Shown: positions 23,337 to 46,359 of the stretch, one piece after another | How the letters are laid out: each line of letters starts with the position of its first letter | Position numbering within the stretch: the stretch's first letter is position 1 | Source: Deltaproteobacteria bacterium | Lineage (GTDB): Bacteria; Desulfobacterota; JAFDED01 | Assembly: GCA_019310535.1 (NCBI GenBank) | Contig: JAFDED010000004.1 | Span: 27,699-91,698 of the forward strand | Reading direction: 5' to 3' | DNA length: 64,000 nucleotides | Position numbers and translations under genes: made by a program | The notes under the pieces: model-generated | Database searches by the model: none | What the model was told of the DNA's origin: nothing | Seen by the model: only the letters and a program-made list of their open reading frames with translations

Positions 23337-23744
23337 ATGATCAGACCGAAAAGAATATACTTGACAGCCCTGCTGGCAGTGAGTGCTTTCTTGATTGGAT
23401 ATGCCTCTATATCCATAGCGGATGAGAAGGGGAGTGGTGGACCCAAGTTTGACCTCAAAATCGCTCCAGAGGCTGATGTCAAAGCCAGCGCGTATAAGAA
23501 AGAGTGGAAAGGGAAAAGCCGTCTCCACGTGCAATTGGAAATCACCAACGTGACCGACAAGCCACAACGTTTCAAGGTTATGGGCGACATCCCGGAGGGG
23601 CCTGCCTTCGCCATGAAGGTTCCCCGGAAGGGCAAACCACCGGTGGTGAAACCCAAGGAGACCCAGAAGGTTGTCTTCCCGCTGATTTACGAGAAGATGC
23701 CGGATCGGATCTTTATTGAGCTGATTACCGTTTCTGCGCAGTGA
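23337..23744 (+). CDS. Small secreted/periplasmic hypothetical protein
   Basis: AAGGAGG RBS, signal peptide, beta-rich mature part (LHVQLEITNVTDKPQRFKV). Confidence 0.7.
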   Translation: MIRPKRIYLTALLAVSAFLIGYASISIADEKGSGGPKFDLKIAPEADVKASAYKKEWKGKSRLHVQLEITNVTDKPQRFKVMGDIPEGPAFAMKVPRKGKPPVVKPKETQKVVFPLIYEKMPDRIFIELITVSAQ

Positions 23745-23848
23745 ATTTCGGAGATGAAACAAGGTGCAGGATCATTAAACCTCTTTCCGAGGGGGAAACC
23801 CCCTATTACTGGGAGGGCGACGAGACCCCTGCCAAAAGGAGGGTAGAG

Positions 23849-24820
23849 ATGAAGGACAGAAGCCTTACTATCCTTACTGTCGTAAGTATTGCGGTGGCCC
23901 TGGTCATTGTGGGTGCAGCGGCCGCCGACTCCCACGCAGAGAAAATGAAGCGTTATTCAGTGGCCACAGGCGGAACAGGCGGAACAGTATATCCCATGTT
24001 CGGCGCCATCGCCGAAATTGTCAATAGAAACGTCAAAAATGTGAAGCTGACCGTGGAGGTAACCGCAGCCTCTAACGAAAACCTGCGCTTGATCCAGACC
24101 GGAGAGGTGGACTTCTTTATCTCCAACGGCCAGTTGTGCAGCAAGGCCGTCAAAGGAGAAAAGCCCTTCCCCACCAAGTTCGACAAAGTCCGGCTCGCAG
24201 GTTGGATGCATGGAAGTCCCTTGCAGATCGCTGTATTCGCCAAAAGCAATATTAAGTCCCTCATGGACCTGAAAGGGAAAAAAGTGGTGGTCGGCGCTGT
24301 TGGTTCGGGCAACGAGGCCTCCGTGCGGATCATTTTTGGGATGGCGGGGCTGACCTACAAGGATTTCAAGCCGTTATACCTTAGCTTCAGCGAGGGTGCT
24401 GCGGCCATGAAAGACCGCAGGGTTGACGTGTTGACCGTACAGGCGGGTTACCCTACCACCGCCCTGCTGGACCTGTCCACATCAGTTCCCATCAGGCTGA
24501 TTCCGGTCGAAATGGCGCTGGCTAAAAAGGTCAACGCCAAGTACCCGCTCTATATTCCATCCACGATCCCGGCAAATATCTATAAAGGCCAGACTGAGCC
24601 AACACTGGTTATCGACTCCCCCGGCGTGTGGGGCGCCGCAGCGTCTGTCCCTGCGGACTTGGTTTACCAGGTGGTGAAGTTAACCAAGGAAAACATCGAC
24701 GAACTGGCCAACGTCCACGTTGCCTTCAAGCAATGGAAATTCGAACCGTCTGTCCAGGCGGCAGGTCCTCTGCATCCTGGCGCCATCCGGTATTACAAAG
24801 AACTGGGGTTGATGAAGTAA
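23849..24820 (+). CDS. TAXI-family TRAP solute-binding protein
   Basis: ATGGTGGTVYP, AASNENL, GSGNE, PLHPGAIRYYKE; start at ATG 23849 with AGGAGG. Confidence 0.92.
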   Translation: MKDRSLTILTVVSIAVALVIVGAAAADSHAEKMKRYSVATGGTGGTVYPMFGAIAEIVNRNVKNVKLTVEVTAASNENLRLIQTGEVDFFISNGQLCSKAVKGEKPFPTKFDKVRLAGWMHGSPLQIAVFAKSNIKSLMDLKGKKVVVGAVGSGNEASVRIIFGMAGLTYKDFKPLYLSFSEGAAAMKDRRVDVLTVQAGYPTTALLDLSTSVPIRLIPVEMALAKKVNAKYPLYIPSTIPANIYKGQTEPTLVIDSPGVWGAAASVPADLVYQVVKLTKENIDELANVHVAFKQWKFEPSVQAAGPLHPGAIRYYKELGLMK

Positions 24821-24860
24821 CCTCCATCGATTGATTCGTTTTCTGTTAACGGTACCATGT

Positions 24861-24903
24861 TTGGCTCCGGGGCGGCTTAGCTGTCCGGTTGCCCCGGAGC
24901 CGA
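24861..24903 (+). terminator. GC-rich intercistronic hairpin after the binding-protein gene
   Basis: GGCTCCGGGGC (24863-24873) pairs perfectly with GCCCCGGAGCC (24891-24901); no strong U-tract, so it may stabilise mRNA rather than terminate. Confidence 0.5.
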
Positions 24904-24985
24904 CATTCTGTCGGAAATGGACCGCCCTCCATCGGGGAAACCGGAATTGTTGAATCACCAAACATGATGCTTCACGGGATTTTAG

Positions 24986-26863
24986 ATGACCAGTCAACGC
25001 CATCTGACGGGTATTATCGCCAAAGTCGCCATGGTCACTGCTGTGGCCATGACTCTGTTCCATCTCTATTATACCACGCTGGGCATCATGCAGATGATGT
25101 ACTTCCGAAGCTTCCACGTCATGTTTGCCTGCGTGCTGATTTTTCTGCTCTACCCAATCTCCAGGAAATCATCCCGTTCGAGTGTCCCCTGGTATGATTA
25201 TCTCTTTGCCGCCCTGACCATCGCGGGCGGAACATACATCATCGTCGAGTTTGAGTCCATGGTGGCCCGGTTGGGCATCCAGACCACCCGTGATGTGGTC
25301 TTCGCCATCATTACCATCAGCCTTGTATTGGAAGCCACCCGGAGGACCGTTGGGAATGCATTGCCGATCTTATGCCTGGTCTTTATTGCTTACGCCATGT
25401 TCGGACACTACCTTCCCGATGCAATTGCTCACCGAGGCTTCAGCATCCAGCGCATCACCAGTCAGCTTTATTCAACCATGGAAGGCATCTACGGCATGAC
25501 CACAAAAGCCATGGCCGTGTATGTGTTCTTGTTCATAGTATTCGGTGCCTTCCTGGACGCATCCGGCGCCGGCAACTATTTCAACGATTTGGCGTACAGC
25601 CTGACCGGTTCCTGGCGGGGAGGCCCCGCTCAGACCGCCGTGGTTGCCAGCACACTGATGGGGTCGGTCTCGGGGGCCGCAGTGGCCAACGTGGTCGCCA
25701 CAGGCAGTTTTACTATCCCTTTGATGAAGAAGGTCGGATATCGCCCGCATGAGGCCGGTGCAATCGAGGCGGCTGCATCCACCGGCGGCCAGTTCATGCC
25801 GCCGGTGATGGGCTCGGGCATATTCATCATGTCCGAGTGGACGGGCATCCCTTACTTTGAAATCGTCAAGTTGGCGTTCCTTCCTGCCCTGCTCTATTTT
25901 TTTTCCGTGGGAGTGTACGTCTATATTCAGGCCAATAAAATGGGCCTTCAGCCGATCCCTCGCTCTGACCTGCCACCCATCGGCAAAACGTTGCTGAAAG
26001 GAATCCACTACATGGTGCCCCTGATTATTCTGGTTGTGGTGCTTCTTATTGGTCGCACCCCTACGTTTGCTGCAGTCATCGGTATCCTTTCGGTAATTGT
26101 GATCAGTTGGTTTCGCAGGGAAACCCGGATGTATCCACGGGACATCATGCGTGGACTGGCCATGGGCGCCAGGAAGGCCATAGCAGTTTCCGCGGCCTGC
26201 GTGGCGTCGGGCGTCGTGGTGGGCGTGGTAGGCCTTACAGGGATAGGGCTGTCATTTTCCTCAGGTGTTATTTCACTGGCCGGGGATTCTTTGATCCTCG
26301 CCTTGCTTTTGGTCATGGGCGCCACCGGCATCCTTGGGATGGGCCTGCCCATCACGGCGGCCTATATTGTCACCGCCATTCTGGCAGCTCCGGCCATGCT
26401 CAAGATGGGAATCCCCCTGCTGGTGGCGCATATGGTCATTTTCTGGTTCAGCTCCATCGGCAACGTTACTCCACCTGTCTGCCTTGCGGCATACGCCGGC
26501 GCCGGGATGGCTGGTGCCGATCCCATGCGCACCGGCTTTACCGCCTGGAACGTGGCAAAAGGGTTGTATGTGATACCATTCATGATGGTTTACACTCCGT
26601 TGATGACCGGTGAACCGGGTCCGATTCTGCTCAATACTTGCCTCATTGCGCTGGGGCTCACGGCCTTCACTATAACACTTTCACGACAATTAATCCGGCC
26701 ATTGAGCCTTTTTCAGCATGCGGCGTTCTTGGGAGCAACGATCTTCCTGCTTTTCCCCATCAACACCATTACTTATGGCTTGGGCATGGCGCTGTTCCTC
26801 TGGGGGATCGTCAGTGATATCTTAAAAGGGAGGGAAAAGATCAGCCAGACTGCTTCGGCTTGA
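24986..26863 (+). CDS. TRAP transporter fused (4TM/12TM) permease, TAXI-associated
   Basis: LEATRR, ANVVATGSFTIPLMKK, EAAASTGGQFMPPVMG, VTPPVCLAAY. Confidence 0.93.
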   Translation: MTSQRHLTGIIAKVAMVTAVAMTLFHLYYTTLGIMQMMYFRSFHVMFACVLIFLLYPISRKSSRSSVPWYDYLFAALTIAGGTYIIVEFESMVARLGIQTTRDVVFAIITISLVLEATRRTVGNALPILCLVFIAYAMFGHYLPDAIAHRGFSIQRITSQLYSTMEGIYGMTTKAMAVYVFLFIVFGAFLDASGAGNYFNDLAYSLTGSWRGGPAQTAVVASTLMGSVSGAAVANVVATGSFTIPLMKKVGYRPHEAGAIEAAASTGGQFMPPVMGSGIFIMSEWTGIPYFEIVKLAFLPALLYFFSVGVYVYIQANKMGLQPIPRSDLPPIGKTLLKGIHYMVPLIILVVVLLIGRTPTFAAVIGILSVIVISWFRRETRMYPRDIMRGLAMGARKAIAVSAACVASGVVVGVVGLTGIGLSFSSGVISLAGDSLILALLLVMGATGILGMGLPITAAYIVTAILAAPAMLKMGIPLLVAHMVIFWFSSIGNVTPPVCLAAYAGAGMAGADPMRTGFTAWNVAKGLYVIPFMMVYTPLMTGEPGPILLNTCLIALGLTAFTITLSRQLIRPLSLFQHAAFLGATIFLLFPINTITYGLGMALFLWGIVSDILKGREKISQTASA

Positions 26864-26884
26864 ATTTAGGCGAGGGAAAAGACG

Positions 26885-27358
26885 ATGAAAATCACGATTC
26901 CAGCCGTCTTTGGTGTTTTTGTTGGAATCCTGATCACCGCCCCGGCATCCGGGGGCCGATACGTTATCGAGGTGTACAACGACAGCTTGGGAAAGATGAT
27001 CATCCAGCGGCCCGCGGTGCCCGGCAATAGGTTCTCACTCGAATACATGCACTCCATTCAGCTTCATCCGGTGGTGGAAAACTTCACTTTTGATAAGCAG
27101 GGAGACATCATCCTGACCGACCAGATTATCATGGACCACGGGCACGGGCTGCCTGAGCCCTCCCCAAAGGATCACTGGCGTTTGGTTGATGACAAGATCC
27201 ACATTTATAACATCAACAAGCGTATTGGGACCATCGTTCTGCGGGTCAGCTTTTTACATGACCAGTTCCTGGTGTTCGGCTCATTTCGACTGAACCTGGT
27301 GAAAGTCGCACGGGGAGGACAGAGAATAATCATTTCTGTCCATCGTTTCGAGGAGTAG
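26885..27358 (+). CDS. DUF1850-like protein
   Basis: FSLEYMHSIQLHPVVENF...GHGLP pattern; usual partner of TAXI systems. Confidence 0.75.
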   Translation: MKITIPAVFGVFVGILITAPASGGRYVIEVYNDSLGKMIIQRPAVPGNRFSLEYMHSIQLHPVVENFTFDKQGDIILTDQIIMDHGHGLPEPSPKDHWRLVDDKIHIYNINKRIGTIVLRVSFLHDQFLVFGSFRLNLVKVARGGQRIIISVHRFEE

Positions 27359-27478
27359 TTCTTTCCCCCGAGTCGCCCTATGGGTGCGGCAGTTCACTAA
27401 AGGGCGGTGTCCAGCGTTTTGGCGGAGCTTGCCCGACTTCGCATTTTGTTCCGAGTTCCGGGTGATGAGGAGGTTTCT

Positions 27479-28609
27479 ATGCAGCTTACGGAAAAGGAGA
27501 TCAAGTTCGCCACAGATGGTATTGATCGTCTGGTTTGTGCTCCAATCGGCGCCAAGTTTTTCCGGCGCACCGAATACCCGCTGATCCATTTGCTCTATGA
27601 GGCGGCCCGAAAAAAAACGGCGACGGGAGACCCGTTGAGCTACCAGGCGGCCAAAGGCCTGGCCGAGCGGGTCAAGCCGGGTGACACGGTGATTTTTCTG
27701 ACCGGTTGGTACTTGCCCATGTACATGATCGGCGAGAATGACGGCCCTCCGGGCTCCGCTGGCTTGGCCCGCGCCATCAACTTCGGGCTGGGGGCCACTC
27801 CCATCGTCTTCTCAGAGTCCGGCCACCTGGACATAATAAAGGCCTCTTTTCAAGGTGCGGGCTTTCGCATTGCCGATGATCTCAAAGAGGCCCGGAAGAT
27901 AATGCGCCGCGTATATGTGGCAGCCCCGCTCTCGCCTCGCATGGATGAAACACAGAGCATAGAGATCATAAATCGCCGGCTGGATGAGCTGAAGCCCTCT
28001 GCCGTCATCGCAGTGGAGAAAAGCGGTCCCAATGCAGCCGGACTGAATCACTCGCTGCCCGGACGAGATCTGACACCCATCAACGGGAAATACCACCTCT
28101 TGGTGGAAGAGGCCCGGCGCAGGGGCATATTTACCATTGGCTGCGGTGATGGCGGCAACGAGATCGGCATGGGCAACGTTCACGAGGAGGTGCGAAAATA
28201 CCTTGCCACCGGCGACACGTGCTACTGTGGATGGTATTCAGGTTGCGCCGCCACTACTCAGACTGATGTACTGGTTGTGGGCTTCATTTCCAATTGGGCC
28301 GCTTATGGCATCGAGGCAGCACTGGCACTATTCCTCCAGCGCCACGAACTCATGCATGACGGGGAGATCGAGGAGCGTGTTTTGCGCTTGACCGCCGACG
28401 CCGGCGCTGCCGGACCTCCTTACGGATTTTCCGAAATGGGTGTGGATGAGCTTCCCACCCGCTTTAATATCCTGCTGGTAGAACAGCTCAAGTTCACCGT
28501 GCTGGATTACCTGACACATACAGAGGGCCGCCGCAGATACATGGAGACTATCAAGGGGATCGCAGCCCTGGACACTTGGATTAAAGAGGAATACGCCCAC
28601 AAAGATTAG
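27479..28609 (+). CDS. D-glutamate cyclase-like (DUF4392) protein
   Basis: ENDGPPG, IAVEKSG, TIGCGDGGNEIGMG, SNWAAYG; start ATG 27479 with GAGGAGG. Confidence 0.8.
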   Translation: MQLTEKEIKFATDGIDRLVCAPIGAKFFRRTEYPLIHLLYEAARKKTATGDPLSYQAAKGLAERVKPGDTVIFLTGWYLPMYMIGENDGPPGSAGLARAINFGLGATPIVFSESGHLDIIKASFQGAGFRIADDLKEARKIMRRVYVAAPLSPRMDETQSIEIINRRLDELKPSAVIAVEKSGPNAAGLNHSLPGRDLTPINGKYHLLVEEARRRGIFTIGCGDGGNEIGMGNVHEEVRKYLATGDTCYCGWYSGCAATTQTDVLVVGFISNWAAYGIEAALALFLQRHELMHDGEIEERVLRLTADAGAAGPPYGFSEMGVDELPTRFNILLVEQLKFTVLDYLTHTEGRRRYMETIKGIAALDTWIKEEYAHKD

Positions 28610-28653
28610 TGAGGTGTCTCAATGTCGACTTTTGTAAAAGGAGGAGGAAAGCC

Positions 28654-29628
28654 ATGAAGAAGAGAACATCCGTCTGGTTTGTCAGTTTAGCGGCGCTATT
28701 GGTTTTTGGGTTCAGCCCATCGGTTCCGGCAGCGGACTATCCGGTAAAGCCGGTTCAGTTGATCGTGCCCTATTCGCCCGGAGGCAGCCTGGACAGGACT
28801 GCTCGGATCATCGCAAAACACGCCGAGAAGTACCTGGGCCAGAAGGTGGTAGTCGTTAACAGGACCGGCGCCAGCGGTTCCGTCGGCTTCACGGCCATCG
28901 CGCAGGCCAAGCCGGAGGGTTACGTCCTGGGTATGGGCGCCACACCTTTGATCCAGCACCACCTGCTCCTGGAAGGGGTGACATACACATACAAAAGCTT
29001 CACCCCCGTCGTAATGTGCTCCTATGATAATAACACCTTTACGGTGAAAGCTGGGAGCCCCATCGACAAGCCATGGAAGGAGTTTTTGGCATATATGAAG
29101 GCGCATCCTAATGAAATACCCATCGGATTGGGAGGACACTGGTCTTCCCTGGATCTGGCTCGGGCGGCTTTCGAGCTGGCCACCGGGACGAGCTTTCGCA
29201 GGGTCCAATTCAAGGGAGGCGCCAAGGCTGTCGCATCTGTTCTGGGGGGGCATACTATGGCCACCACCGCTTATCAGGATGAAATTTACGACCACGTTAA
29301 GTTGGGCAAGCTTCGCATCCTGACCTTTATGTCCGAGAAGCGCATGGCCAACTTCCCCGATGTCCCAACCATGAAGGAACTCGGTTACGATGTGGTCATG
29401 GGTGTATGGCGTGGTGTCATCGCTCCCAACGGTCTGCCGGACGACGTCAAAAAGAAGGTCATCGAGGCTTTTGACAAGACGATCAAGGATCCCGCACTCA
29501 AGGCAGACTTCGAAAAAGGAAAGGTCCCCTACGTGTATAAGAACGCCGAGGAATTTGGAAAGATCAGGGCTCAGGGCCACGAGAAAATCACCAAGATCGT
29601 CCAGACCATCAAGGCCAGGTCAAAATAA
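28654..29628 (+). CDS. tctC: Tripartite tricarboxylate transporter binding protein (TctC/Bug)
   Basis: YPVKPVQLIVPYSPGGSLD, VVNRTGASG, PDVPTMKELG. Confidence 0.9.
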   Translation: MKKRTSVWFVSLAALLVFGFSPSVPAADYPVKPVQLIVPYSPGGSLDRTARIIAKHAEKYLGQKVVVVNRTGASGSVGFTAIAQAKPEGYVLGMGATPLIQHHLLLEGVTYTYKSFTPVVMCSYDNNTFTVKAGSPIDKPWKEFLAYMKAHPNEIPIGLGGHWSSLDLARAAFELATGTSFRRVQFKGGAKAVASVLGGHTMATTAYQDEIYDHVKLGKLRILTFMSEKRMANFPDVPTMKELGYDVVMGVWRGVIAPNGLPDDVKKKVIEAFDKTIKDPALKADFEKGKVPYVYKNAEEFGKIRAQGHEKITKIVQTIKARSK

Positions 29629-29749: not shown

Positions 29750-30241
29750 GTGATGTCCCGCGCTGAGAGGCTCTCCGTTCCTTTGACGCTGATCGTTTTC
29801 AGCGCCCTGAGCTATTTACAGACAACAAGATTTCCGCCCCTGGCGGCCCGATTCCCCAAATTGGTCATTACGGGAATATTGTCGCTGTCGTTGTGCCTCT
29901 TTATCAAAGAATTGAGATCCCGCACACCACCGGCCGAAGTGGAATCAGAGAAAGAGAATGCGGAAGGGCTGCAGTTTGGTGCCGGGGGGCTCACCATGCC
30001 CAGGGCCCGGCAGAGCCTGATTATCGTCTCCATGATCGGATATATTGGCCTCTTGCAATATCTGGGCTTTGTATTGGCCACGCTTCCGTTTCTTCTTGTG
30101 CAATTCTGGCTCCTTGGATATCGGGGGATCTGGACCGTCGTGTCGGTGGCGGTTTGCATGACTTTGGCGATTTATTATATATTTGTTAAGATTTTTCTGA
30201 TTATGTTTCCGGAGGGGATCATTTTACCCGGTCTTTTATGA
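29750..30241 (+). CDS. tctB: Tripartite tricarboxylate transporter small membrane subunit
   Basis: About 4 TM helices, FP and LGF motifs, C-terminal FPEG; lies between tctC and tctA. Confidence 0.8.
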   Translation: MMSRAERLSVPLTLIVFSALSYLQTTRFPPLAARFPKLVITGILSLSLCLFIKELRSRTPPAEVESEKENAEGLQFGAGGLTMPRARQSLIIVSMIGYIGLLQYLGFVLATLPFLLVQFWLLGYRGIWTVVSVAVCMTLAIYYIFVKIFLIMFPEGIILPGLL

Positions 30242-31815: not shown

Positions 31816-32742
31816 ATGGCCAAAGAGATTCGAAAGCCGGATTTTGTCTGGCTCAACGGTGAATTTATCCCCTTTGACGAGGCCAGAGTCCACCTGTTGA
31901 GCCCCTGCGCCCGCTATGGCATCAATGTCTTCGAGGGTCTGCGTGCTTACTGGAATGATGAGGTGCGGCAACTCTACGCATTCCGTCTCCGGGAACACTA
32001 TGTCCGGCTTGCGGAGTCCATGAAGATGATGCGGCTTCAGATTCCGCAGTCCATAGAGGATAATATCAAAATCCTGATAGAGACCTTTCAAAAGAATAAC
32101 CTGCGCGAAGATTGCCACATCAGACACGTTGTCTATGTAGATGGTTTTGAGGGGTATTATTCCACAGAACCGGTGGGCATGCTCGTGTGCGCCCTTCCCA
32201 CGGGGCGGTTTCTTAATATCGAGGAGGGCATCACTGCCACCATCAGTTCCTGGCGGAGGATAGATGACAACAGCATCCCGGCGCGCATAAAGGCGGGATC
32301 CAATTATCAGAACAGCAGACTTGCTACGATGTGGGCCAAAAAAGACGGCTATGACCAGCCCATCATACTGAACGCCGACGGGAAAGTGGCCGAGGGACCG
32401 GGTTCGTGTTTCTTCATGGTGCGCAAGGGGATAGTCCTCACTCCGCCCGTCACCGCCGGCATACTTGAAAGTGTAACCCGCGATTCGCTGATCCAGTTGA
32501 TCAGCGAGGAATTGAGGCTTCCAATGGAAGTCCGAGACATCGACCGGACAGAGGTATACGTGGCAGAAGAGGCCTTCCTCTGCGGGAGCGGCTATGAGGT
32601 TACTCCCATCAATTCGGTTGACCGCTTACCCCTGGGTGAGGGAAAGCCGGGACCCATTACCCGTCGGATACAGAAAGCTTACTTTGACATCGCTAGGGGA
32701 CGTAGCCCCAAGTATCCTGAGTGGAGAACTGCCGTTTACTGA
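31816..32742 (+). CDS. Class IV PLP aminotransferase (branched-chain/D-amino-acid type)
   Basis: YGINVFEGLRAY, RIKAGSNY, EGPGS, ILESVTR, EEAFLCGS. Confidence 0.9.
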   Translation: MAKEIRKPDFVWLNGEFIPFDEARVHLLSPCARYGINVFEGLRAYWNDEVRQLYAFRLREHYVRLAESMKMMRLQIPQSIEDNIKILIETFQKNNLREDCHIRHVVYVDGFEGYYSTEPVGMLVCALPTGRFLNIEEGITATISSWRRIDDNSIPARIKAGSNYQNSRLATMWAKKDGYDQPIILNADGKVAEGPGSCFFMVRKGIVLTPPVTAGILESVTRDSLIQLISEELRLPMEVRDIDRTEVYVAEEAFLCGSGYEVTPINSVDRLPLGEGKPGPITRRIQKAYFDIARGRSPKYPEWRTAVY

Positions 32743-32765
32743 GCGGTGCAACTGCGGGGACGCAA

Positions 32766-36585: not shown

Positions 36586-36643
36586 AGACGTGAAGGGGCG
36601 GTGTGCAGCAAGATGCCTGATGAAGCAGATGGAACAGGAGGAA

Positions 36644-38602: not shown

Positions 38603-38744
38603 AGTCTGTATTACGGGCAACCAATCAAGGAGTGGCGTCCTGGTTGAAGAGATTGTGTAATAAGGATAGCAACAAAAATGTATTGTGGAGAACTCTGTTT
38701 GGAGCATCTGAATTAGTGCCACAGTGGCGAAAGGGGGAGGATTC

Positions 38745-40136
38745 GTGGAAACCGAACAGTTGTTGTCTCACTATGTGGCGGAAACCCCCTATGAGGAGAT
38801 ACCATCTGATGTTGTGGAGATGACCAAGCTGTGCATCCTGGATACGGCGGCCTGCGGGCTGGCAGGAAGCACGGCACCCGGAGTGAGAGAGGTCGTTGAA
38901 TTGGCTCAAGAACTGGGCGGAAGGCCGGAAAGCACGATCATGTATTACGGTGGAAAGATCTCATCGCCCTATGCGGCCTTCGCCAACAGCACCATGTGCC
39001 ATGCCCGTGATTTCGACGATACCCACGACCGGGGAGTGATCCATGCGTTTGTCAATGTTATGCCCGCTGTGTTGGCGGCCTCGGAAAGACGGGGCGGCGT
39101 GAGTGGCCGGGAAATCATAGCGGCCTGCGCGCTTGGTGCGGATTTGGCCTGCCGGCTGGCCCTTGCTGTCACGTTTGGGCCGGGATTCGAGAAGACTCAA
39201 CCGGGCTTTCTCCGTACAACCGTGTGCGGTATTTTCGGCGCAGCCGCCGGTGCAGCCCGGGCGCTGGGGCTGGATGCGAATGGCGTACATCATGCTATGG
39301 GAATCGTTTACAGCCAGACCGGCGGGAACAAGCAGTGCGTCACTGACGCATCCCTGGTCAAGCGTATGCAGCCGGCCCTGGCGGCACAGGGGGGAGTTTT
39401 TGCAGCTCTTCTTGCTCAGCGGGGGATTACCGGCGCCGCGGGATTTCTTGAAGGCCTTTATGGGATGTTCAATCTTTATTGGGGGGGCGCTTTTAATCGC
39501 GATGAACTTTTAGGGGATCTGGGCAGACGGTATGAACTGATGAACCTCTCCTTCAAGCCCTATCCCTCCTGTCGCCATTCCCACGGGGCTATCGAGGCCA
39601 TTCTTAAGATTGTGCAGGAGCATCCGCTTAAACCCGACGATGTGGATAGAGTGGTAGTTCATACGTCAAAACATAAGTTTTATGACAACGTCAGCCGGCC
39701 CTTTGCTGTGCGCGGCAATCCTCAGGTGGACGCGCAGTTCAGCATTCCTTACGCCGTCGGCGCGGCTCTGCTGAGGAAGGATGTATTCCTTGATGTCTTC
39801 GAGGAGCCTGTGGTTCGAAGTCCGGAGTTCCAGCAGATGGCTGCAAAAGTTGAAGTGGTCGCGGATCACGAAATCGTTCCAGGCTCTCTTGGCCCTGTAA
39901 CAGTCGAGGTGTTTACCCGCCACAACCGGCGCTACACGTCCCGTGTCGATGAATTCAAAGGCCATCCTGAGAATCCCATGAGCCGGGAAGAAATCCTGGA
40001 CAAGTTTCAGAAGTGCTCAACTGCTGCCTTCTGTGAGTATAGCGCACAGCGGGTCCGCAATATTGCGGATGGAATCCTTGGGCTTGAAGAACTCCGATCT
40101 GTGGAAGATCTGATGGTCCTTTTGGGTGGGAAATGA
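38745..40136 (+). CDS. MmgE/PrpD-family protein
   Basis: HARDFDDTH, KPYPSCRHSH, AQFSIPY, KGHPENP; GTG start with GGAGG. Confidence 0.9.
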   Translation: METEQLLSHYVAETPYEEIPSDVVEMTKLCILDTAACGLAGSTAPGVREVVELAQELGGRPESTIMYYGGKISSPYAAFANSTMCHARDFDDTHDRGVIHAFVNVMPAVLAASERRGGVSGREIIAACALGADLACRLALAVTFGPGFEKTQPGFLRTTVCGIFGAAAGAARALGLDANGVHHAMGIVYSQTGGNKQCVTDASLVKRMQPALAAQGGVFAALLAQRGITGAAGFLEGLYGMFNLYWGGAFNRDELLGDLGRRYELMNLSFKPYPSCRHSHGAIEAILKIVQEHPLKPDDVDRVVVHTSKHKFYDNVSRPFAVRGNPQVDAQFSIPYAVGAALLRKDVFLDVFEEPVVRSPEFQQMAAKVEVVADHEIVPGSLGPVTVEVFTRHNRRYTSRVDEFKGHPENPMSREEILDKFQKCSTAAFCEYSAQRVRNIADGILGLEELRSVEDLMVLLGGK

Positions 40137-40234: not shown

Positions 40235-41332
40235 GTGATTGAGCTGGAGTTGTTTGACCGTGCCCGGGTTGTTCTTCGCCATTGCGCACTGCTGGAGGCA
40301 GGGGATCAGGTACTGATCCTCAGCGACGGCACACTGAGCCCCAGAATACTCAATGCTTTCGCCACCGCAGCACATGCCGATGGTGCCCGGGCGTGCCGGA
40401 TGACGTATGATCCGCGAACGTATATTCCCATGAAACATTTCTGCACCTTTGCAGGTATGTCACTGGACCCCTCGCCGGCAGAGCCGCCGGCCCCGGTGCG
40501 CGGTTCCCTCCGGGATGCGGATGTCATCGTCCTGTTGACCTCCGACCTGACACTCTACTTTTCCCGGGCCCTTAAAGAGGCCCTGGCCCTGAGCAAGCGG
40601 ATGGTCTCCTCCATATATATCACAGAGGAGAATCTGCTCCGTCTGTTCCCCGAGTCGGAGCAGGAGGTCATCGAACTTGACGAACTGACCCATGCTGTCG
40701 GCTCAGCGTGCGAGGCGGGAGGAAATGTTCGTTTCACATCGCCTGCCGGGACGGACTTCGAGTGTACGCTGGGCCAGTATGGCCTGAAGTGCAGCGGTGG
40801 AAGGATACGGAAAGCAACCCCTGGCGCGGTTACACGCTTCCTGCCCGAGTTCATACCCGGTGGCCAGGTGACTCGTGTTCCCGACGACGGGTCGGCGCAT
40901 GGGCGCATCGTCCTTAACAGAAGCATTGCCGCACGGGAATACCGTGAGCTGACCGAGCCGATCTATCTCGATGTCGAAAAGGGGTATGTACGGGAAATCT
41001 CGGGGGGTTGGGAAGCCCGCGACCTGAAAAGGTTTCTGGAAGAAATGGGCGGTGGTGAGATGTACCATATTACTGAAATCGGCCTGGGCACGAACAGGCG
41101 CTGTGTCCGCTGCGGCGTTGCCGCCCCTGCTGAAGATACCCACATGGCGGGCAGCGTCACCTTTGCTCTAGGGTGCGATGTTCACATTGGAGGCTCCACT
41201 CGAGCCCCAGCCCATATCGATTGCACCACCCACCAGGGTAACCTTCACGTGGGGGGAGTGGAAATTGTGCGAGAAGGGAAGATCCTCATAGATGCACCGA
41301 CATCCGCGAATCCATGGAGGGGAAAACGATGA
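40235..41332 (+). CDS. Peptidase M29-fold / NicX-like metalloenzyme
   Basis: TSPAGTDF, ITEIGLGTN, VTFALG...GG...HID pattern. Confidence 0.65.
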   Translation: MIELELFDRARVVLRHCALLEAGDQVLILSDGTLSPRILNAFATAAHADGARACRMTYDPRTYIPMKHFCTFAGMSLDPSPAEPPAPVRGSLRDADVIVLLTSDLTLYFSRALKEALALSKRMVSSIYITEENLLRLFPESEQEVIELDELTHAVGSACEAGGNVRFTSPAGTDFECTLGQYGLKCSGGRIRKATPGAVTRFLPEFIPGGQVTRVPDDGSAHGRIVLNRSIAAREYRELTEPIYLDVEKGYVREISGGWEARDLKRFLEEMGGGEMYHITEIGLGTNRRCVRCGVAAPAEDTHMAGSVTFALGCDVHIGGSTRAPAHIDCTTHQGNLHVGGVEIVREGKILIDAPTSANPWRGKR

Positions 41333-42111
41333 GGCGCAAGAACCCACGAACAAAAAAAACACCCAATGAAGTGAAGTTCAGCGGCGCCGTGGCCCGCGAG
41401 CGCATCAAATCATGGGATTTTTCCAGACCTGCTCCGGAGGTCATAGCGCGATACATGAAGATTGATGATTTGACGTCCACCGTCTCCGACATCCTGGACA
41501 GAGAGGGGATACGCGGGGCGATTCCGGGCTCTGTATTACAGCCCATCATCCCGGGAAAGAAAATAGCCGGACCGGCTACGACAGCCCGGCATGGCCCTGA
41601 ACGCAAAGAGGCCACCCGAATGGCGGTGGACAGGGATCGGGTGCGTCTCGGCATGCGCGATGTGCGCGAAGTTGCCCGGCCCGGTGATGTGCTGGTTTAT
41701 GACGGAGGCGGCCAGGCTGACGTTTCCAGCGGCGGCCACCTCGCCGCCCTCTTCTCTAAAGTTAAGGGTTTCGCCGGTTCCATATTCGATTGTGGTGTCC
41801 GCGACGTGGACGCCATCCGAGAGTTAGACTACCCCACCTGGGCCAGGGGAGTGACACCCATCACAGGGAAATATCGCTTCGAAACTCTGGAGATCAACGG
41901 CCCCGTAGTAATTGCCGGAGTGCAGGTTCTACCGGGAGACCTTATACTGGCTGACACCAGCGGTGTAGTAGTGGTACCGCGCGAAAAAATAGAAGACGTC
42001 CTGATCATGGCCGAAGAGGCCGCTACCAAAGAAGATGAGCTCATGAAGGCCATCCGCCGGGGAGCTTCCTTGGAGGAGCTCAACAAGATACTTTCCATGG
42101 AACGATGGTAG
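41329..42111 (+). CDS. RraA / HMG-aldolase family protein
   Basis: VSDILD, IAGPATT, PGDVLV, DCGVRD, PGDLILADTSGVVVVP. Confidence 0.88.
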   Translation: MRRKNPRTKKTPNEVKFSGAVARERIKSWDFSRPAPEVIARYMKIDDLTSTVSDILDREGIRGAIPGSVLQPIIPGKKIAGPATTARHGPERKEATRMAVDRDRVRLGMRDVREVARPGDVLVYDGGGQADVSSGGHLAALFSKVKGFAGSIFDCGVRDVDAIRELDYPTWARGVTPITGKYRFETLEINGPVVIAGVQVLPGDLILADTSGVVVVPREKIEDVLIMAEEAATKEDELMKAIRRGASLEELNKILSMERW

Positions 42112-42205
42112 CGGGCGTTTATTGAGAGGCGGACGGGGTTTATTTCCGCCCGCTCGTAGTTTAAGTCTGCAAGCGATATGGAAAAAATAACCGGGATTAG
42201 CTGCA

Positions 42206-42430: not shown

Positions 42431-42432
42431 AA

Positions 42433-43563
42433 ATGGAGGATGGCGGAGTAGTCAGGTTCATGGAAGGCAACGAGGCCGTGGTGGAGGGAGCCGTCGCTGC
42501 AGGAGTTCGCTTTTTCGCAGGCTACCCCATAACGCCTGCCACTGAGATCGCGGAGCATATGTCTATCCGAATGCCCCAGGTGGGCGGTACATTCATGCAG
42601 ATGGAAGACGAACTGGCCAGTCTGGCAGCAGTCATCGGGGCCTCAGTGGGCGGGGTGAAGTCCATGGATGCCACCAGCGGGCCGGGTATTTCGCTGAAGA
42701 ACGAGAATATCGGCTTTGCCGTGGCAGCAGAGATACCCTGTGTCATCATCAATGTGCAGCGCACAGGTCCGGGGATCGGCTCTGTAACCATGGCCCAGCA
42801 GGATTTAATGCAGGCACGGTGGGGGTCCCATGGTGATTATACCGTCATTGCTCTGGCTCCTGCCTCAGTGCAGGAATGTTACGATCTGACCATTCGGGCC
42901 GTGAACCTCTCCGAGCGGTTTCGAACCCCGGTGATCCTGCTGCTGGACACCTTTCTGGGCCACTTGAGCGAGCGGGTGGTCCTGGAAACACCGAAAGAAA
43001 TCATCGATCGGCCAAGACCTACGGTGCCTCCTGAAAAGTACTTGACGTTTGATGCGGAAGGGGATGAGATTCCGCGCATGGCAGATTTCGGCGGGCCGTA
43101 CAGGTCAAAAATTATCGGTAACATGCACAACAAGGCAGGGGGATACACCCGGAGCCCGGAGATATTCGAGGCCCTGATCCGTCGATGGCAAGGTAAGGTC
43201 TTGGCGCGCAGAAACGAATACACTGATGTGGAGCGATTTATGATTGAGGATGCACGGGTTGCCGTGATCACCTGGGGCACAACCGCGCGCTCGGCAAAGC
43301 GGGCTATCCGCATTGCCCGTGAAGAGGGAATCCCTGTGGGACTGTTCCGGCCGCGAACGGTTTGGCCCTTCCCTGGCCGGGAAGTAGAGGATCTTTCCGG
43401 GCGGGTCGGCCAGATCGTGGTGCCGGAGATGAACCTGGGGCAGATGTACATCGAGGTGGATCGCTGGAGCCGAGGCCGATGTGGGGTTCACCCTGTGAAT
43501 CAAGTGGATGGACAGGCAATACTGCCTGCTCGGATTCTGGAAAAGATCAAGGAGGTGGCTTAA
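42433..43563 (+). CDS. 2-oxoacid:ferredoxin oxidoreductase alpha subunit
   Basis: GNEA, FFAGYPITPATE, QMEDE, ATSGPG, PEMNLGQ. Confidence 0.93.
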   Translation: MEDGGVVRFMEGNEAVVEGAVAAGVRFFAGYPITPATEIAEHMSIRMPQVGGTFMQMEDELASLAAVIGASVGGVKSMDATSGPGISLKNENIGFAVAAEIPCVIINVQRTGPGIGSVTMAQQDLMQARWGSHGDYTVIALAPASVQECYDLTIRAVNLSERFRTPVILLLDTFLGHLSERVVLETPKEIIDRPRPTVPPEKYLTFDAEGDEIPRMADFGGPYRSKIIGNMHNKAGGYTRSPEIFEALIRRWQGKVLARRNEYTDVERFMIEDARVAVITWGTTARSAKRAIRIAREEGIPVGLFRPRTVWPFPGREVEDLSGRVGQIVVPEMNLGQMYIEVDRWSRGRCGVHPVNQVDGQAILPARILEKIKEVA

Positions 43564-44414
43564 TGGCAAAGCTTAAGCCACATAGGGAGTTGCTCGGGAA
43601 GTATTTTACCCAGGAGGATTTGCCCACGGCATGGTGTCCCGGGTGTGGGTGCGGCATCGTGGCGCAGGCGCTGATCCGTGCCATGGATGCGACGGGAATC
43701 CACCCGGACAAATTTGCTTTTATCACCGGCATCGGTTGCAACGGGTTCATTCCACGCTATCTGCTTTTTAACGAACTTCACGTCCTTCACGGCCGCGCGC
43801 CCGGCTACGGCACGGGGCTGAAAATGGCCCGTCCCGACCTTTCCGTCATTCTTGTTCAGGGAGACGGTGATCTGGCGGCCATAGGGGGAAATCACTTCAT
43901 TCATGTTGCCAGGCGTAACATCGACCTGACGGCCATCGTCTCCAACAACTTCATTTATGGCCGGACAGGCGGCCAATTCGGACCCACAACAGCTTATGGC
44001 GACCACGCAACCACAGCGCCATTCGGTCTGCCCGAACGTCCTTTCGACCTGTGCAGGCTCGCGGAGTCTGCCGGTGCCACATTCGTGGCGCGGGGAACGG
44101 TCTATCATGTCATCCCCCTGATCAATATGATTGAAAAGGCGATCCTTCACAAGGGCTTTTCCATGGTGGAGGTTATCACTCCGTGCCCTACCAATTACGG
44201 ACGGCGCAACCCGGAGAAAACCGGTTCTACCGGCCCCGAGATGCTCAAGTGGATCAGGGATAATACCGTTTCTCTGTCCAGGGCCCGACAGATGAGCCCT
44301 GGTGAGTTGGAGGGGAAAATCATCTCCGGTATTTTTGTCGAGCGCGGTGATCCCGAGTATACAGATGAGTATGAGAAGATTCGGGAAAAAGCCCGGTCAC
44401 TTGTATCTCGGTAA
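43563..44414 (+). CDS. 2-oxoacid:ferredoxin oxidoreductase beta subunit (TPP-binding)
   Basis: WCPGCG, GIGC, HGR, GDGD...NN; start ATG 43563 overlaps the alpha stop codon. Confidence 0.93.
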   Translation: MAKLKPHRELLGKYFTQEDLPTAWCPGCGCGIVAQALIRAMDATGIHPDKFAFITGIGCNGFIPRYLLFNELHVLHGRAPGYGTGLKMARPDLSVILVQGDGDLAAIGGNHFIHVARRNIDLTAIVSNNFIYGRTGGQFGPTTAYGDHATTAPFGLPERPFDLCRLAESAGATFVARGTVYHVIPLINMIEKAILHKGFSMVEVITPCPTNYGRRNPEKTGSTGPEMLKWIRDNTVSLSRARQMSPGELEGKIISGIFVERGDPEYTDEYEKIREKARSLVSR

Positions 44415-44466
44415 GGGGAAAAAATAAGCACGGCTGTTAAATAAGGTCAAAAAAGGAGAATGCGGA

Positions 44467-45021
44467 ATGATTCGGGAGATACGTTTCGCCGGGTCGGGTG
44501 GACAGGGAATACTGTTGGCAGGTAATGTGCTTGCGGAATCCGCTGCAGTATATGAGGGCCGCAATGTGGCCCGGAACACCGCGTATGGGGGGCAGGTGAG
44601 GGGAGGAGCCAGCCGCTGCGAAGTGCTCATGGCTGACAATGACGAAGAGATAGATTTTCCTCAGGTTCTCTGTGCTGATGTGCTTGTTGCAATGAGTCCT
44701 GAGGCCGTGAAGGAATTTGCGCGCGAGGTCAAGGACGAGGGGCTTATCTTACTGGACGCCAGCCTGACGGGGGAAATGCCGGATGTGAGGGCCCGTGTGG
44801 TCGCCATTCCAGCCACAAAAATCGCTGACGAGGAGTTAGGACAAGTCCACGTTGCCAACATGGTCATTCTGGGTGCACTCCTGAGTCTGACCCATCTGGT
44901 GCCGCTGGAGAGTGCGGAAAAGGCCCTGATTGGCAAAGTACCCCCCCATACAGTGGAGCTTAACCTGAAGGCCTTCCGCCGGGGAGTCAAGGCCGCCCGG
45001 CAATTCGAGAGCGCTGCGTAA
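44467..45021 (+). CDS. 2-oxoacid:ferredoxin oxidoreductase gamma subunit
   Basis: IRFAGSGGQG, YGGQVRGG, ANMVILGA, NLKAF. Confidence 0.92.
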   Translation: MIREIRFAGSGGQGILLAGNVLAESAAVYEGRNVARNTAYGGQVRGGASRCEVLMADNDEEIDFPQVLCADVLVAMSPEAVKEFAREVKDEGLILLDASLTGEMPDVRARVVAIPATKIADEELGQVHVANMVILGALLSLTHLVPLESAEKALIGKVPPHTVELNLKAFRRGVKAARQFESAA

Positions 45022-45033
45022 AGAGGTTAATCA

Positions 45034-46359
45034 ATGCCCGAACAGCCCCATGGTTCATGGAGAGACCATTATCGCTCCATACTTGCCGATCCCCAAGAGG
45101 CGGTGCGGCATGTGCAATCCGGACAGCGAATCTTCATGGAGACCAACTGTGCCGAGCCTTTATCTCTCATTGAAGCCATGATGGCGCGGCGGGGAAAACT
45201 CGAACAAGTGGAGATAGTCCAGGGCTTTTATCGCGACAAAGTTTGTCCTTACGCACAACCGGGAATGGAGGCCCATTTTCGGATCACCGCCTTCCACGTT
45301 GGGCCGGCGGTCATGCCTGCGCTGCGAGCGGGTTTCTGTGACTACATACCGGTGCACCTTTCGGAGATTCCCCGTTTGTGTGAGCCATCCGGTCCTTTGC
45401 CTATAGACGTTGCGCTGGTTCAACTCTCACCCCCGGACGATGAAGGTTATTGCAGCTTCGGCATAGCGGTAAACTTCACGAAGCCTATCGTGGAGAATGC
45501 CCGGTGTATCGTCGCGGAAATCAACGACTGCATGCCCTACGTGTTTGGAGATACTACCATACACGTGTCCCGGCTTGCAGCTGCGGTGGAGGTTTCGCGG
45601 CCTCTGGTGGAACTTCCTCCCGCCAACATAAATGATGAGGCAAAAGCTATCGCCGAGCAGATAGCTCCCCTCATCCCTCACGGGGCAACCCTTCAGATCG
45701 GAATCGGTTCGGTACCGGATGCAGTGCTGGCCCTGCTGAGAGATCATCATGACCTGGGCATCCATTCAGGACAGATCGGCGATACGGTGGTGGAAATGAT
45801 CCAGGCGGGAGTCATCACCAATGCCCGTAAATCCTTTGACAAGGGTGTAACTGTCTCATGTATGGCCATGGGGACCAATGATGGGGTTTATCGCTTCATT
45901 CACCGAAACACGGCGGTGGCTTTTCACCCCGTGGCCTACACGCATGACCCGTGCATTGTCGGACGAATCGACAATTTTATCACCCTGGCATCGGCGGTTG
46001 AGATTGATTTAACCGGTCAGGTAAACGCAGAAATGGTACGGGGTGAGCAAATCAGCGGTCTGGGAGGGTCCCAGGACTACTTGCGGGCGTCATCCCGCTC
46101 GTCGGGAGGGAAGGCCATCCTGGCGATGACCTCCACGGCTGGCCGGGGGAAGTTCTCACGCATTGTCCCGAGTCTTCCTCATGGTGTATCGGTATCTTCG
46201 CCGCGTGGGGACGTCCATTATGTGGTCACCGAGTACGGCATCGTAAATCTCCGGGGCCGAACGTTAGGCCAGCGGGCACGAGCCCTGGTGGAGATCGCCC
46301 ACCCGCGTTTCCGCGATGAATTGCGGGGCGCGATCATGGAGATGAAGCTTGGATGCTGA
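45034..46359 (+). CDS. Acetyl-CoA hydrolase/transferase (4-hydroxybutyrate CoA-transferase-like)
   Basis: SPPDDEGYCSFG, TLQIGIG, EIDLTGQV, SGLGGSQD, VVTEYG, IAHPRFR. Confidence 0.9.
   Translation: MPEQPHGSWRDHYRSILADPQEAVRHVQSGQRIFMETNCAEPLSLIEAMMARRGKLEQVEIVQGFYRDKVCPYAQPGMEAHFRITAFHVGPAVMPALRAGFCDYIPVHLSEIPRLCEPSGPLPIDVALVQLSPPDDEGYCSFGIAVNFTKPIVENARCIVAEINDCMPYVFGDTTIHVSRLAAAVEVSRPLVELPPANINDEAKAIAEQIAPLIPHGATLQIGIGSVPDAVLALLRDHHDLGIHSGQIGDTVVEMIQAGVITNARKSFDKGVTVSCMAMGTNDGVYRFIHRNTAVAFHPVAYTHDPCIVGRIDNFITLASAVEIDLTGQVNAEMVRGEQISGLGGSQDYLRASSRSSGGKAILAMTSTAGRGKFSRIVPSLPHGVSVSSPRGDVHYVVTEYGIVNLRGRTLGQRARALVEIAHPRFRDELRGAIMEMKLGC

Follow-up and report, generated by a model that had tools for sequence, protein, structure and literature searches.

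Which compound is broken down by the 23-kb run of plus-strand genes at positions 23337-46359 of a stretch of DNA from a Deltaproteobacteria bacterium (Desulfobacterota; assembly GCA_019310535.1)? The stretch that was analysed, here called the window, comprises 64,000 nucleotides of contig JAFDED010000004.1 (positions 27,699 to 91,698), and all positions without a contig name refer to it. The run is a tightly packed row of catabolic genes, unusual in its length, whose core is conserved in part. The reading preferred here, with a probability of about 45%, is that it serves as a single catabolic unit in a strict anaerobe that scavenges organic acids, directed at the class of carboxylated cyclic amides. 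The best guess for the substrate is an anionic, nitrogen-containing cyclic amide of this class with a five- or six-membered ring, of the 5-oxoproline or 5-substituted-hydantoin type. This class is proposed because HyuAB and creatininase replace one another in related loci, a pyruvate-type lyase is constant, the aminotransferase is of the branched-chain (BCAT) type, and the importers are, by family, of kinds that would take carboxylates. The initial annotation, made from the letters and open reading frames (ORFs), did not recognise the gene set as a described pathway; a literature search for the combination, which covered sources other than subscription-journal papers and supplements, likewise found no description.

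The run holds 20 ORFs, numbered g01 to g20 (Table 1). The roughly 20 co-oriented genes of the initial annotation are thus present, and each of the families it listed was recovered in its place by Pfam, NCBIfam or structure matches; only the 135-amino-acid g01 had gone unlisted. A Pfam family could be named for 17 of the 19 run ORFs searched, the two without a match being g01 and g14, and 13 of the 20 have NCBIfam matches. Co-orientation is regional rather than specific to the run, because every ORF of at least 150 amino acids taken as a gene from 18512 to 52080 lies on the plus strand, and this region has positive GC skew. Better evidence comes from the short internal gaps, which range from −22 to 165 nt, while the flanking gaps measure 811 nt upstream and 425 nt downstream. 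From TctA through the aminotransferase, HyuB and HyuA to the reductase, the gaps are 16, −22, 1 and 4 nt; the ends of g14 and g15 share 19 nt; and the string from the 2-oxoacid:ferredoxin oxidoreductase (OFOR) to the CoA transferase (g16 to g20) has gaps of 2, −1, 52 and 12 nt. The run probably has several internal transcription starts. Promoter-like and terminator-like consensus sites did not exceed shuffled sequence in a first scan (14 versus 8.5±2.7 and 20 versus 14.2±4.8) and were at chance in a second (7 versus 6.0±3.0 and 15 versus 11.4±4.3). Between the TAXI binding-protein and permease genes, the fold of 24830-24960 reaches −55 kcal/mol (z −3.65; 1 of 200 shuffles equally good), and hairpins in the g15-g16, g06-g07 and g12-g13 gaps are no better than shuffles (z −0.40, −1.11 and +0.20).

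Ring opening would fall to HyuAB (g10 and g11), both subunits of which are present as adjoining genes with full-length domains. By its PDB matches, g11 is nearer to N-methylhydantoinase (7hk5, 481 bits; 6yra, 422 bits) and lactamase than to the acetone and acetophenone carboxylases (328 and 271 bits). The two subunits stay below every NCBIfam equivalog cut-off, with 590 and 236 against 1000 for caprolactamase and 335 and 131 against 1500 for acetophenone carboxylase. The TctC and TAXI binding proteins are, judged by their families, of kinds that would take carboxylates. The aminotransferase g09 passes two IlvE equivalog cut-offs in NCBIfam (NF005146, 301.9 against 279; TIGR01122, 291.2 against 245.55) and carries a FEGLRAY motif at 39; its best PDB match is the BCAT 6h65 (294 bits), and its top 15 PDB matches are all BCATs.

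The other enzymes can be placed in families with varying precision. The reductase g12 has the complete architecture of 2-enoate and 2,4-dienoyl-CoA reductases, with the motif C365-x2-C368-x3-C372-x12-C385. Its best PDB matches are the dearomatising 2-naphthoyl-CoA reductase 6qkg (319 bits) and DCR 1ps9 (295 bits), and it misses the NCBIfam equivalog cut-offs for BaiCD, BilR and mycofactocin proteins. The MmgE/PrpD-family protein g13 is closest to the branch of IRG1/CAD (cis-aconitate decarboxylase) and iminodisuccinate epimerase rather than to PrpD proper (PDB matches 7bra, 3e-31, and 2hp0, 1.3e-30), and it is far under the equivalogs for the 2-methylcitrate dehydratase PrpD (46 against 950, 35 against 575 and 28 against 458). 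All four OFOR subunits (delta, alpha, beta and gamma) are present. Only the generic alpha model was passed, and the 2-oxoglutarate-specific equivalogs were missed (alpha, 352.7 against 579; beta, 253.8 against 364; delta, 50 against 125; OorC, 103.8 against 216). Relatives of the CoA transferase g20 are called 4-hydroxybutyrate CoA-transferase by one source.

At the centre of the argument stands g14. It matches the solved structure of NicX (7cn3) with an E-value of 3.5e-13 as a single sequence and 2.2e-36 as a 22-sequence profile. Its predicted structure (pLDDT 91.4) has NicX 7cn3 and 7cup as top Foldseek matches (TM 0.75-0.80, E 2e-26), followed by M29 aminopeptidases (TM 0.56-0.68) and CgnE/CgnB. 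The iron of NicX, Fe(II), is reported to be bound by His265, Ser302, His318 and Asp320, each essential by mutagenesis (PMC7910607). In the profile alignment, g14 retains H318 and D320 (its H327 and D329), but H265 is replaced by E281 and S302 by A311, and the same two substitutions occur in all 22 aligned relatives and in seven rows of the g14 clade. Because two of the four iron ligands are replaced, g14 cannot act as a NicX-type dioxygenase, which also fits an anaerobe. The label ‘M29/NicX-like’ in the initial annotation therefore holds for the NicX fold, in sequence and in model, and not for the NicX dioxygenase. Nor can peptidase activity be deduced: g14 has no match to PF02073 (Peptidase M29) even at E up to 10; this family is matched in 13 of 17 NicX-like paralogue ORFs searched from the genome of the run (G000, 95% complete) and a genome of the same genus (G001, 94% complete, 520 contigs).

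The metal site of g14 appears to be intact. The g14 clade has additional invariant residues, E300, D301, H303, D315 and H317, and the last three are clade-specific, being absent from the other NicX-fold paralogues of the genome. Judged by spacing only, the E...H...H-x-D arrangement of g14 resembles the dinuclear zinc site described for CgnB (PMC10070186). The clade is small, with 31 members at E up to 1e-30 in a set of 1.84 billion representative proteins.

The gene that overlaps g14, g15, belongs to the RraA-like proteins. In the HMG/CHA aldolase of this family, Arg123 is described as stabilising the enolate, Asp124 and Glu199 as binding the metal, and Asn71 and Lys147 as contacting the substrate carboxylate (PMC5065237). 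R123, D124 and E199 align with R163, D164 and E240 of g15, while K147 is replaced by R188 and R195 by A236, and N71 falls outside the alignment. Cut-offs of the LigK type are missed (TIGR02798, 84 against 304.5; NF006731 (PRK09262), 92.1 against 179), and the best NCBIfam score, 122 against a cut-off of 208, is to NF006093 of the PRK08245 subfamily. The call of an RraA aldolase is therefore upheld for the RraA-like family with its catalytic R, D and E, but the best score points to PRK08245, not to LigK. Because the RraA family is also reported to hold the dehydratase/decarboxylase FlDet (PMC8563752), aldol cleavage is not assured, and g15 can be predicted to be an aldolase or decarboxylase working through a pyruvate enolate, and nothing narrower.

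The remaining metalloenzyme, g05, carries a DUF4392 domain. Its residues E110, D112, E204, D248 and E252 align with five of the six acidic metal ligands of TON_0340 (E59, D61, E115, D157, E161 and D246, the last lying outside the alignment), and the metal site of g05 appears intact. TON_0340 has been reported only as a weak Mn-dependent phosphatase, and mammalian D-glutamate cyclase as a protein that has DUF4392 and PF07286 domains together (PMC5339696, PMC5132392).

Conservation of linkage was assessed around relatives of g14. A 22-sequence alignment was used to scan one genome per species, and 196 pattern matches yielded nine confirmed relatives at eight loci (L001 to L008), whose neighbours were identified by tblastn and Pfam. 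These loci are assigned to Anaerolineae/Anaerolineaceae, Limnocylindria, Acidimicrobiia, Gaiellaceae, Paractinoplanes and Rhodobacteraceae. A cyclic amidase of some kind is present in six of the eight, all but L004 and L005, which are short contigs: HyuAB in L006 and L007, creatininase in L001, L002 and L003, and Amidohydro_1 in L002, L003 and L008. Five loci have a pyruvate-type C–C lyase (RraA, HpcH or FAA hydrolase; L001, L002, L004, L006 and L008), which is RraA-like in L001, L002 and L006, and three have DUF4392 or the PF07286 D-glutamate cyclase (L001, L004 and L006). The most telling is the Gaiellaceae locus L006, where a GntR/UTRA gene, an RraA-like gene, HyuA, HyuB, a class IV aminotransferase, a D-glutamate cyclase (PF07286) and a NicX-fold gene share one strand, overlap at their ends and alternate with the genes of a single ABC importer. 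The Anaerolineaceae locus L001 combines a creatininase, DUF4392, an RraA-like gene and two NicX-fold genes with overlapping ends. DUF4392 is directly beside NicX-fold genes in L001, in L004 and on contig C225 of G001, where the NicX-fold gene comes directly before it. Linkage is thus conserved in part, in that a core of NicX-fold protein, RraA-like lyase, DUF4392 or D-glutamate cyclase, ring amidase of the HyuAB or creatininase type and class IV aminotransferase recurs across phyla. The synteny analysis proposed in the initial annotation returned a core for amidase, lyase and cyclase, but none for the reductase, OFOR and CoA transferase, which are found in none of the eight loci.

Closer relatives, 77-82% identical to g05 and g14, were found only in metagenome data, one of them from a Desulfobacterota metagenome-assembled genome (MAG). 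Several matches have the same longest-contig size: 47,160 bp for g05 (82%) and g14 (81%); 46,702 bp for g05 (80%), g14 (77%) and the CoA transferase (54%); 20,981 bp for a partial g05 (81%) and the CoA transferase (54%); and 7,815 bp for g14 (80%) and the CoA transferase (59%). The last two sizes fit the spans from g05 to g20 (19 kb) and from g14 to g20 (6.1 kb) in the window, and together the matches suggest that relatives of about 80% identity keep the row from g05 to g20. Wider sampling added no members to the g14 clade. With five candidates scored per genome, 401 genomes from the phylum of G401 and 401 from that of G404 each gave a single match, in the centre genome itself. Within its own phylum, g14 is matched in 8 of 41 sampled genomes, at no more than 34% identity, and g05 has relatives in 3 of 401 genomes at E up to 1e-40, none of them orthologous. 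A metagenome search with HyuA returned 80 loci, mostly at about 45% identity, with HyuA in 76 and HyuB in 59. Among the 25 other window proteins queried in these loci only the thiolase of the flank was matched, in one locus, and the HyuA branch was the wrong one.

A pathway that accommodates these enzymes can be drawn, each step of which is inferred from the part that was observed, namely family membership and residues. Uptake would proceed via TctCBA, the TAXI-TRAP system or both. Where the ring or side chain has a conjugated C=C bond, g12 would reduce it, after which HyuBA would open the ring amide at the expense of ATP. Metal-dependent hydrolytic cleavage of a C–N bond, for instance to split off a carbamoyl or acyl group or to deaminate the opened ring, might then be carried out by g14, with g05 possibly acting on the other enantiomer or a related ring. 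The aminotransferase g09 would pass the alpha-amino group to 2-oxoglutarate, g13 would isomerise, dehydrate or decarboxylate a polycarboxylate, and g15 would cleave or decarboxylate a 4-substituted 2-oxo acid through the pyruvate enolate. OFOR would oxidatively decarboxylate the 2-oxo acid product or products to acyl-CoA with reduction of ferredoxin, and g20 would finally recycle the CoA, giving the free acid.

Table 1. Features of the run and its upstream flank (window positions)
Feature	Position	Strand	Basis
GntR/UTRA (HutC-type) regulator	20496..21248	+	Pfam GntR and UTRA; upstream of the run as first delimited
Acyl-CoA dehydrogenase (ACAD), flank	21365..22525	+	Pfam ACAD domains; below all NCBIfam equivalog cut-offs
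g01 small secreted protein, 135 aa, no family	23337..23744	+	No Pfam or NCBIfam match; hydrophobic N-terminus (by eye)
g02 TAXI-type TRAP solute-binding protein	23741..24820	+	PF16868 1.7e-72; TIGR02122 267.8 > 84.35
15-bp hairpin between TAXI binding-protein and permease genes	24863..24901		Fold of 24830-24960, plus strand
g03 TRAP fused permease	24986..26863	+	TIGR02123 674.4 > 320.65
g04 DUF1850 protein	26885..27358	+	PF08905 9.1e-13
g05 DUF4392 / D-glutamate-cyclase-like C-terminal domain protein, metal-dependent (predicted)	27407..28609	+	PF14336 2.2e-54
g06 TctC binding protein	28609..29628	+	PF03401 3.2e-50
g07 TctB	29750..30241	+	PF07331 6.4e-15
g08 TctA permease	30315..31799	+	PF01970 8e-146
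g09 class IV aminotransferase, branched-chain (IlvE) type	31816..32742	+	PF01063; NF005146; TIGR01122
g10 HyuB subunit, ATP-dependent lactamase/hydantoinase	32721..34466	+	PF02538 6.3e-158, full profile (1-519 of 519)
g11 HyuA subunit	34468..36585	+	PF05378, PF01968 and PF19278
g12 reductase: OYE-type FMN domain, [4Fe-4S] cysteines, FAD/NAD(P) domain	36590..38602	+	PF00724 26-358; PF07992 407-633
g13 MmgE/PrpD-family protein	38724..40136	+	PF03972 and PF19305
g14 NicX-fold (M29-clan) metalloprotein	40235..41332	+	Profile match to 7cn3; predicted structure
g15 RraA-like class II lyase (aldolase/decarboxylase type)	41314..42111	+	PF03737 2.2e-32
g16 OFOR delta, 2x[4Fe-4S] ferredoxin subunit, 74 aa	42206..42430	+	OGOR_delta 2.4e-13; two CxxCxxCxxxCP motifs by eye
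g17 OFOR alpha	42433..43563	+	Generic alpha model NF006412 495.3 > 411
g18 OFOR beta (thiamine pyrophosphate)	43563..44414	+	PF02775; NF007207 253.8 < 364
g19 OFOR gamma	44467..45021	+	PF01558; NF006323 165.7 < 235
g20 family I CoA transferase (acetyl-CoA hydrolase/transferase type)	45034..46359	+	PF13336 and PF02550; TIGR03948 274 < 675

The start of the OFOR beta gene was corrected from 43362 to 43563, and the likely starts of g02, g05 and g06 lie at about 23846, 27479 and 28654, respectively.

The initial annotation described one coherent route, and its enzyme logic does fit the family-level evidence, with linkage partly kept. Nevertheless, a number of observations weigh against a single catabolic unit. 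Besides the three families missing from all eight loci, the class IV aminotransferase is found only in L006 and PrpD only in L007, and the NicX-fold gene alone is common to all eight. The loci are not independent, because L002 and L003, both Limnocylindria MAGs of near-duplicate gene content, share one arrangement. The persistence of the g05-to-g20 row in relatives is read from equal contig sizes only. In addition, the run contains two separate uptake systems, which suggest more than one substrate, and g09 scores as an ordinary IlvE with the biosynthetic ilvBN genes just downstream. No collinear match to the run exists in G001, where only 30 short matches of 64-88% identity are scattered over many contigs. 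Finally, tblastn against the whole G000 assembly found 14 NicX-fold, 12 PrpD, 23 TctC, 21 TctA, 18 TAXI and 14 OFOR-alpha genes, together with 3 HyuAB and 5 IlvE-like genes. Because copy numbers are so high, it is less striking that these families are neighbours than it would be in most genomes. The genome is full of similar transporter-led cassettes, and the run may have been assembled from such modules.

A mosaic origin is possible though somewhat unlikely. Three or four independent transporter-led cassettes for different substrates would have been joined at a rearrangement-prone spot: TAXI-TRAP with DUF1850 and DUF4392; TctCBA with aminotransferase, HyuBA and reductase; PrpD with NicX-fold protein and RraA; and OFOR with CoA transferase. 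In favour of a mosaic, the run has two complete uptake systems, the sub-blocks are set apart by gaps of 94-165 nt, an insertion-sequence-end-like repeated element lies at about 19830-20060, and the locus differs between G000 and G001. Each sub-block also exists separately elsewhere in G000. On contig C178, HyuAB and TctCBA are accompanied by a flavoprotein, an FmdA-type amidase, an HpcH aldolase and a class IV aminotransferase; C162 has HyuAB with an aminotransferase; C2 combines PrpD with four NicX-fold genes and a TAXI-TRAP system; C169 has OYE with two PrpD genes; C136 has RraA with a CoA transferase; and C92 has a NicX-fold gene with OFOR. Moreover, 10 of the 14 NicX-fold and 8 of the 12 PrpD genes have a TAXI or Tct gene no more than 10 kb away, compared with 15% of random sites. 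A mosaic sits less well with L006, which unites members of three sub-blocks behind one importer, and with the direct adjacency of DUF4392 and NicX-fold genes in L001, L004 and C225. Equal contig sizes point to g05 and g20 remaining linked in relatives of about 80% identity, and no terminator-like site beyond chance was detected in the internal gaps. Other pairings recur as well, on C218 of G001 (RraA directly before a NicX-fold gene, with an aminotransferase and a DHDPS-type aldolase) and on C40 of G000 (the nearest paralogue of g14, alongside a creatininase and an Asp/Glu/hydantoin racemase); recurrent enzyme pairings are therefore meaningful.

If the run is a unit, its substrate could be of another kind. 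The initial annotation named an N-heterocyclic acid or a glutamate/pyroglutamate analogue as fitting, and in the aromatic form of the first idea a pyridine or pyridone carboxylate (such as a hydroxypicolinate, hydroxynicotinate or dipicolinate) would be dearomatised by g12 and its lactam opened by HyuBA. The relatives of g12 and g14 lend this some colour, as 2-naphthoyl-CoA reductase (6qkg) is a dearomatising enzyme, the fold of g14 is that of a pyridone-binding enzyme, and HyuAB-like IaaCE is listed for anaerobic indoleacetate breakdown (PMC8453981). An aromatic substrate is nonetheless improbable: Pfam and NCBIfam gave no molybdenum hydroxylase in the run, g12 is unlinked to the core in all eight related loci, the substrate and metal residues of NicX are not kept, and the exchange of creatininase for HyuAB in L001-L003 points to small five-membered rings. 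There is a slimmer chance that the run salvages 5-oxoproline or D-glutamate, taking 5-oxo-L/D-proline to glutamate, 2-oxoglutarate, succinyl-CoA and, via OFOR and the CoA transferase, succinate. BCATs work with the glutamate/2-oxoglutarate pair, and the OFOR subunits score best, though under cut-off, to 2-oxoglutarate models. DUF4392 also forms mammalian D-glutamate cyclase when it is combined with PF07286 (PMC5339696, PMC5132392), but no PF07286 gene was found in the 95%-complete G000. Such salvage would leave no role for the reductase, PrpD, NicX-fold and RraA-like proteins, although the last two are the conserved core. Furthermore, the HyuAB of C162 (27619-34429), next to an arylmalonate-decarboxylase-like gene and a gamma-glutamyltranspeptidase, is likelier to be the genuine 5-oxoprolinase of the organism. 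Least probable by far is a set that is not catabolic at all, with biosynthetic or housekeeping genes for amino acids or cofactors (IlvE with ilvBN) among transporters. The IlvE scores of g09 fit this, as do ilvB and ilvN, which follow the run and pass biosynthetic acetohydroxyacid synthase cut-offs. However, ilvBN lies 425 nt away and is kept in G001 without the run, the genome has four further IlvE-like genes, and importers, ATP-dependent amidase, OFOR and CoA transferase are catabolic hallmarks.

A carboxylated cyclic amide catabolised by one unit remains the preferred reading. A bolder claim, at present rather doubtful, is that the NicX-fold, RraA-like, DUF4392 or D-glutamate cyclase and ring amidase proteins form an undescribed cross-phylum module that degrades a cyclic ureide or lactam acid without O2. 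In this module the metal site of the NicX fold would have been rebuilt, probably as a dinuclear one, with g14 translationally coupled to the RraA-like lyase. The NicX fold is otherwise seen in an O2-dependent ring-cleaving dioxygenase, in aminopeptidases and in the CgnB/CgnE peptide-binding proteins. If such a module exists, the fold gains a further hydrolytic or lyase-linked function, and DUF4392 gains its first physiological context in bacteria. If the preferred reading is right, the run would represent a new way for anaerobes to mineralise a nitrogen-containing ring acid and a testable context for NicX-fold non-dioxygenases, DUF4392 and RraA-like enzymes other than LigK, three widespread families that so far have no physiological role. 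Because this genome has 14 genes of the NicX-fold family, most of them next to carboxylate importers, one solved case would annotate many genes. These copies often form tandem pairs (for example C2:2216-10177, C31:8470-12437 and C40:11481-12518), and G001 has 10 matches. A second DUF4392 gene is located on C29 of G000 (115-2783), between an ISXO2-like transposase and a fragment of a group II intron maturase.

The flanks help to delimit the run. Upstream lie a thiolase, a GntR/UTRA regulator and an acyl-CoA dehydrogenase (ACAD), and downstream ilvB/ilvN and two MaoC genes. The GntR/UTRA protein is a candidate regulator of the run, and ACAD is possibly related to it in function. A GntR/UTRA gene likewise comes first in locus L006. 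In G001, ACAD (87% DNA identity) and ilvBN (85%) share a contig at a distance of 5 kb, their relative orientation inverted, with a three-gene cassette of TRAP permease, TAXI and Lyase_1 between them in the run's place; for the thiolase and GntR genes, G001 has no match at the DNA level. The behaviour of the run is thus that of a block at a variable site, and its ends agree with those drawn in the initial annotation. The row in G001 (C11:3000-22999) reads TRAP permease, TAXI, Lyase_1, ACAD, OYE (FMN domain only), PrpD and PrpD, divergent from ilvBN, and the triple of OYE and two PrpD genes is that of C169 in G000.

Just upstream of the GntR gene, the element at 19830-20060 belongs to a repeated family of 165-250 bp with copies, 88-96% identical, on at least nine other contigs. 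In two contigs about 0.8 kb separates its halves, one copy abuts an IS1595-type transposase, and it holds a perfect 12-nt inverted repeat at 19866-19906; it looks like the end of an insertion sequence or a miniature inverted-repeat transposable element. Between a promoter-like TTGACA (23050) and g01 lies the near-palindrome TGGTCGTACGATCA (23112-23125), of the kind to which HutC-type GntR regulators bind. It occurs once, which does not exceed chance, as 82 of 100 shuffles give at least one match, and the repeat search of the upstream region gave nothing convincing. Farther away, the window contains plus-strand genes of the enolase-superfamily sugar-acid dehydratase-like, aldehyde:ferredoxin oxidoreductase and galactarate/altronate dehydratase C-terminal types (58448-63049). 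On the minus strand are a radical-SAM protein with DUF3463 adjoining LytB/IspH (15807-17853) and a single protein with GGDEF diguanylate cyclase and PilZ c-di-GMP receptor domains (52417-53601).

No described system among those compared has more than two or three families in common with the run. Only one or two are shared with the aerobic nic pathway, 4,5-cleavage of gallate and protocatechuate, creatinine degradation, the anaerobic urate or orotate routes, itaconate degradation and the gamma-glutamyl cycle, and these candidates were rejected. The anaerobic nicotinate fermentation of Eubacterium barkeri and the indoleacetate (iaa) pathway first reduce or hydroxylate the ring and then open a cyclic amide by hydrolysis. 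They resemble the run in breaking down N-heterocycles without oxygen, but their molybdenum hydroxylase, enamidase and B12 mutases are absent from it (Pfam, NCBIfam). The hydantoin genes of Pseudomonas sp. NS671, which reportedly include a racemase, hyuE, are also among the nearest systems. There, the hyuABC products are described as a two-subunit, ATP-dependent HyuAB that likewise opens a five-membered cyclic amide and a second hydrolase that frees the amino acid (PMC8453981). In the run this second hydrolase would be the NicX-fold protein rather than the HyuC carbamoylase, and carboxylate importers, reductase, PrpD, RraA-like lyase, OFOR and CoA transferase are added in an anaerobic host. The caprolactam pathway of Pseudomonas jessenii is described with the same logic of ATP-dependent opening by the CapAB lactamase, an amino acid and transamination (PMC8453981, PMC6061476). 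The caprolactamase scores given above are far under cut-off, however, the 590 bits being those of g11 with the CapA model; the run's aminotransferase is of the class IV BCAT type, and carboxylate-type binding proteins would, by their families, not suit a neutral lactam.

NicX (PDB 7CN3/7CUP) is the best match of g14 in sequence and fold and shares H318 and D320 with it, but the context of g14 is anaerobic and its partners are amidases and lyases, not NicD, NicF and NicE. The M29 aminopeptidases (AmpT, PepS and AmpS) and CgnB/CgnE belong to the same fold clan, and tandem duplicates are reported as common there too (PMC10070186). L001 (5412-7719) and L004 (916-4067) each have two g14-clade copies, and both copies carry all clade-specific metal residues, unlike the CgnB/CgnE pairs described in the same study, in which one member loses metal residues. 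With HMG/CHA aldolase (LigK/GalC/ProA type; Pseudomonas putida F1, PDB 3NOJ; PMC5065237), g15 has in common the RraA fold, the catalytic arginine and two carboxylates. The LigK/GalC reaction of the lower pathways for aromatics is accordingly one of the nearest described logics. Lastly, g05 shares the DUF4392 domain with TON_0340 and mammalian D-glutamate cyclase (PMC5339696, PMC5132392), but it occurs without a partner domain, and its product is some 110-130 residues longer than TON_0340. In L006, PF07286, the partner domain of D-glutamate cyclase, takes the place that matches g05.

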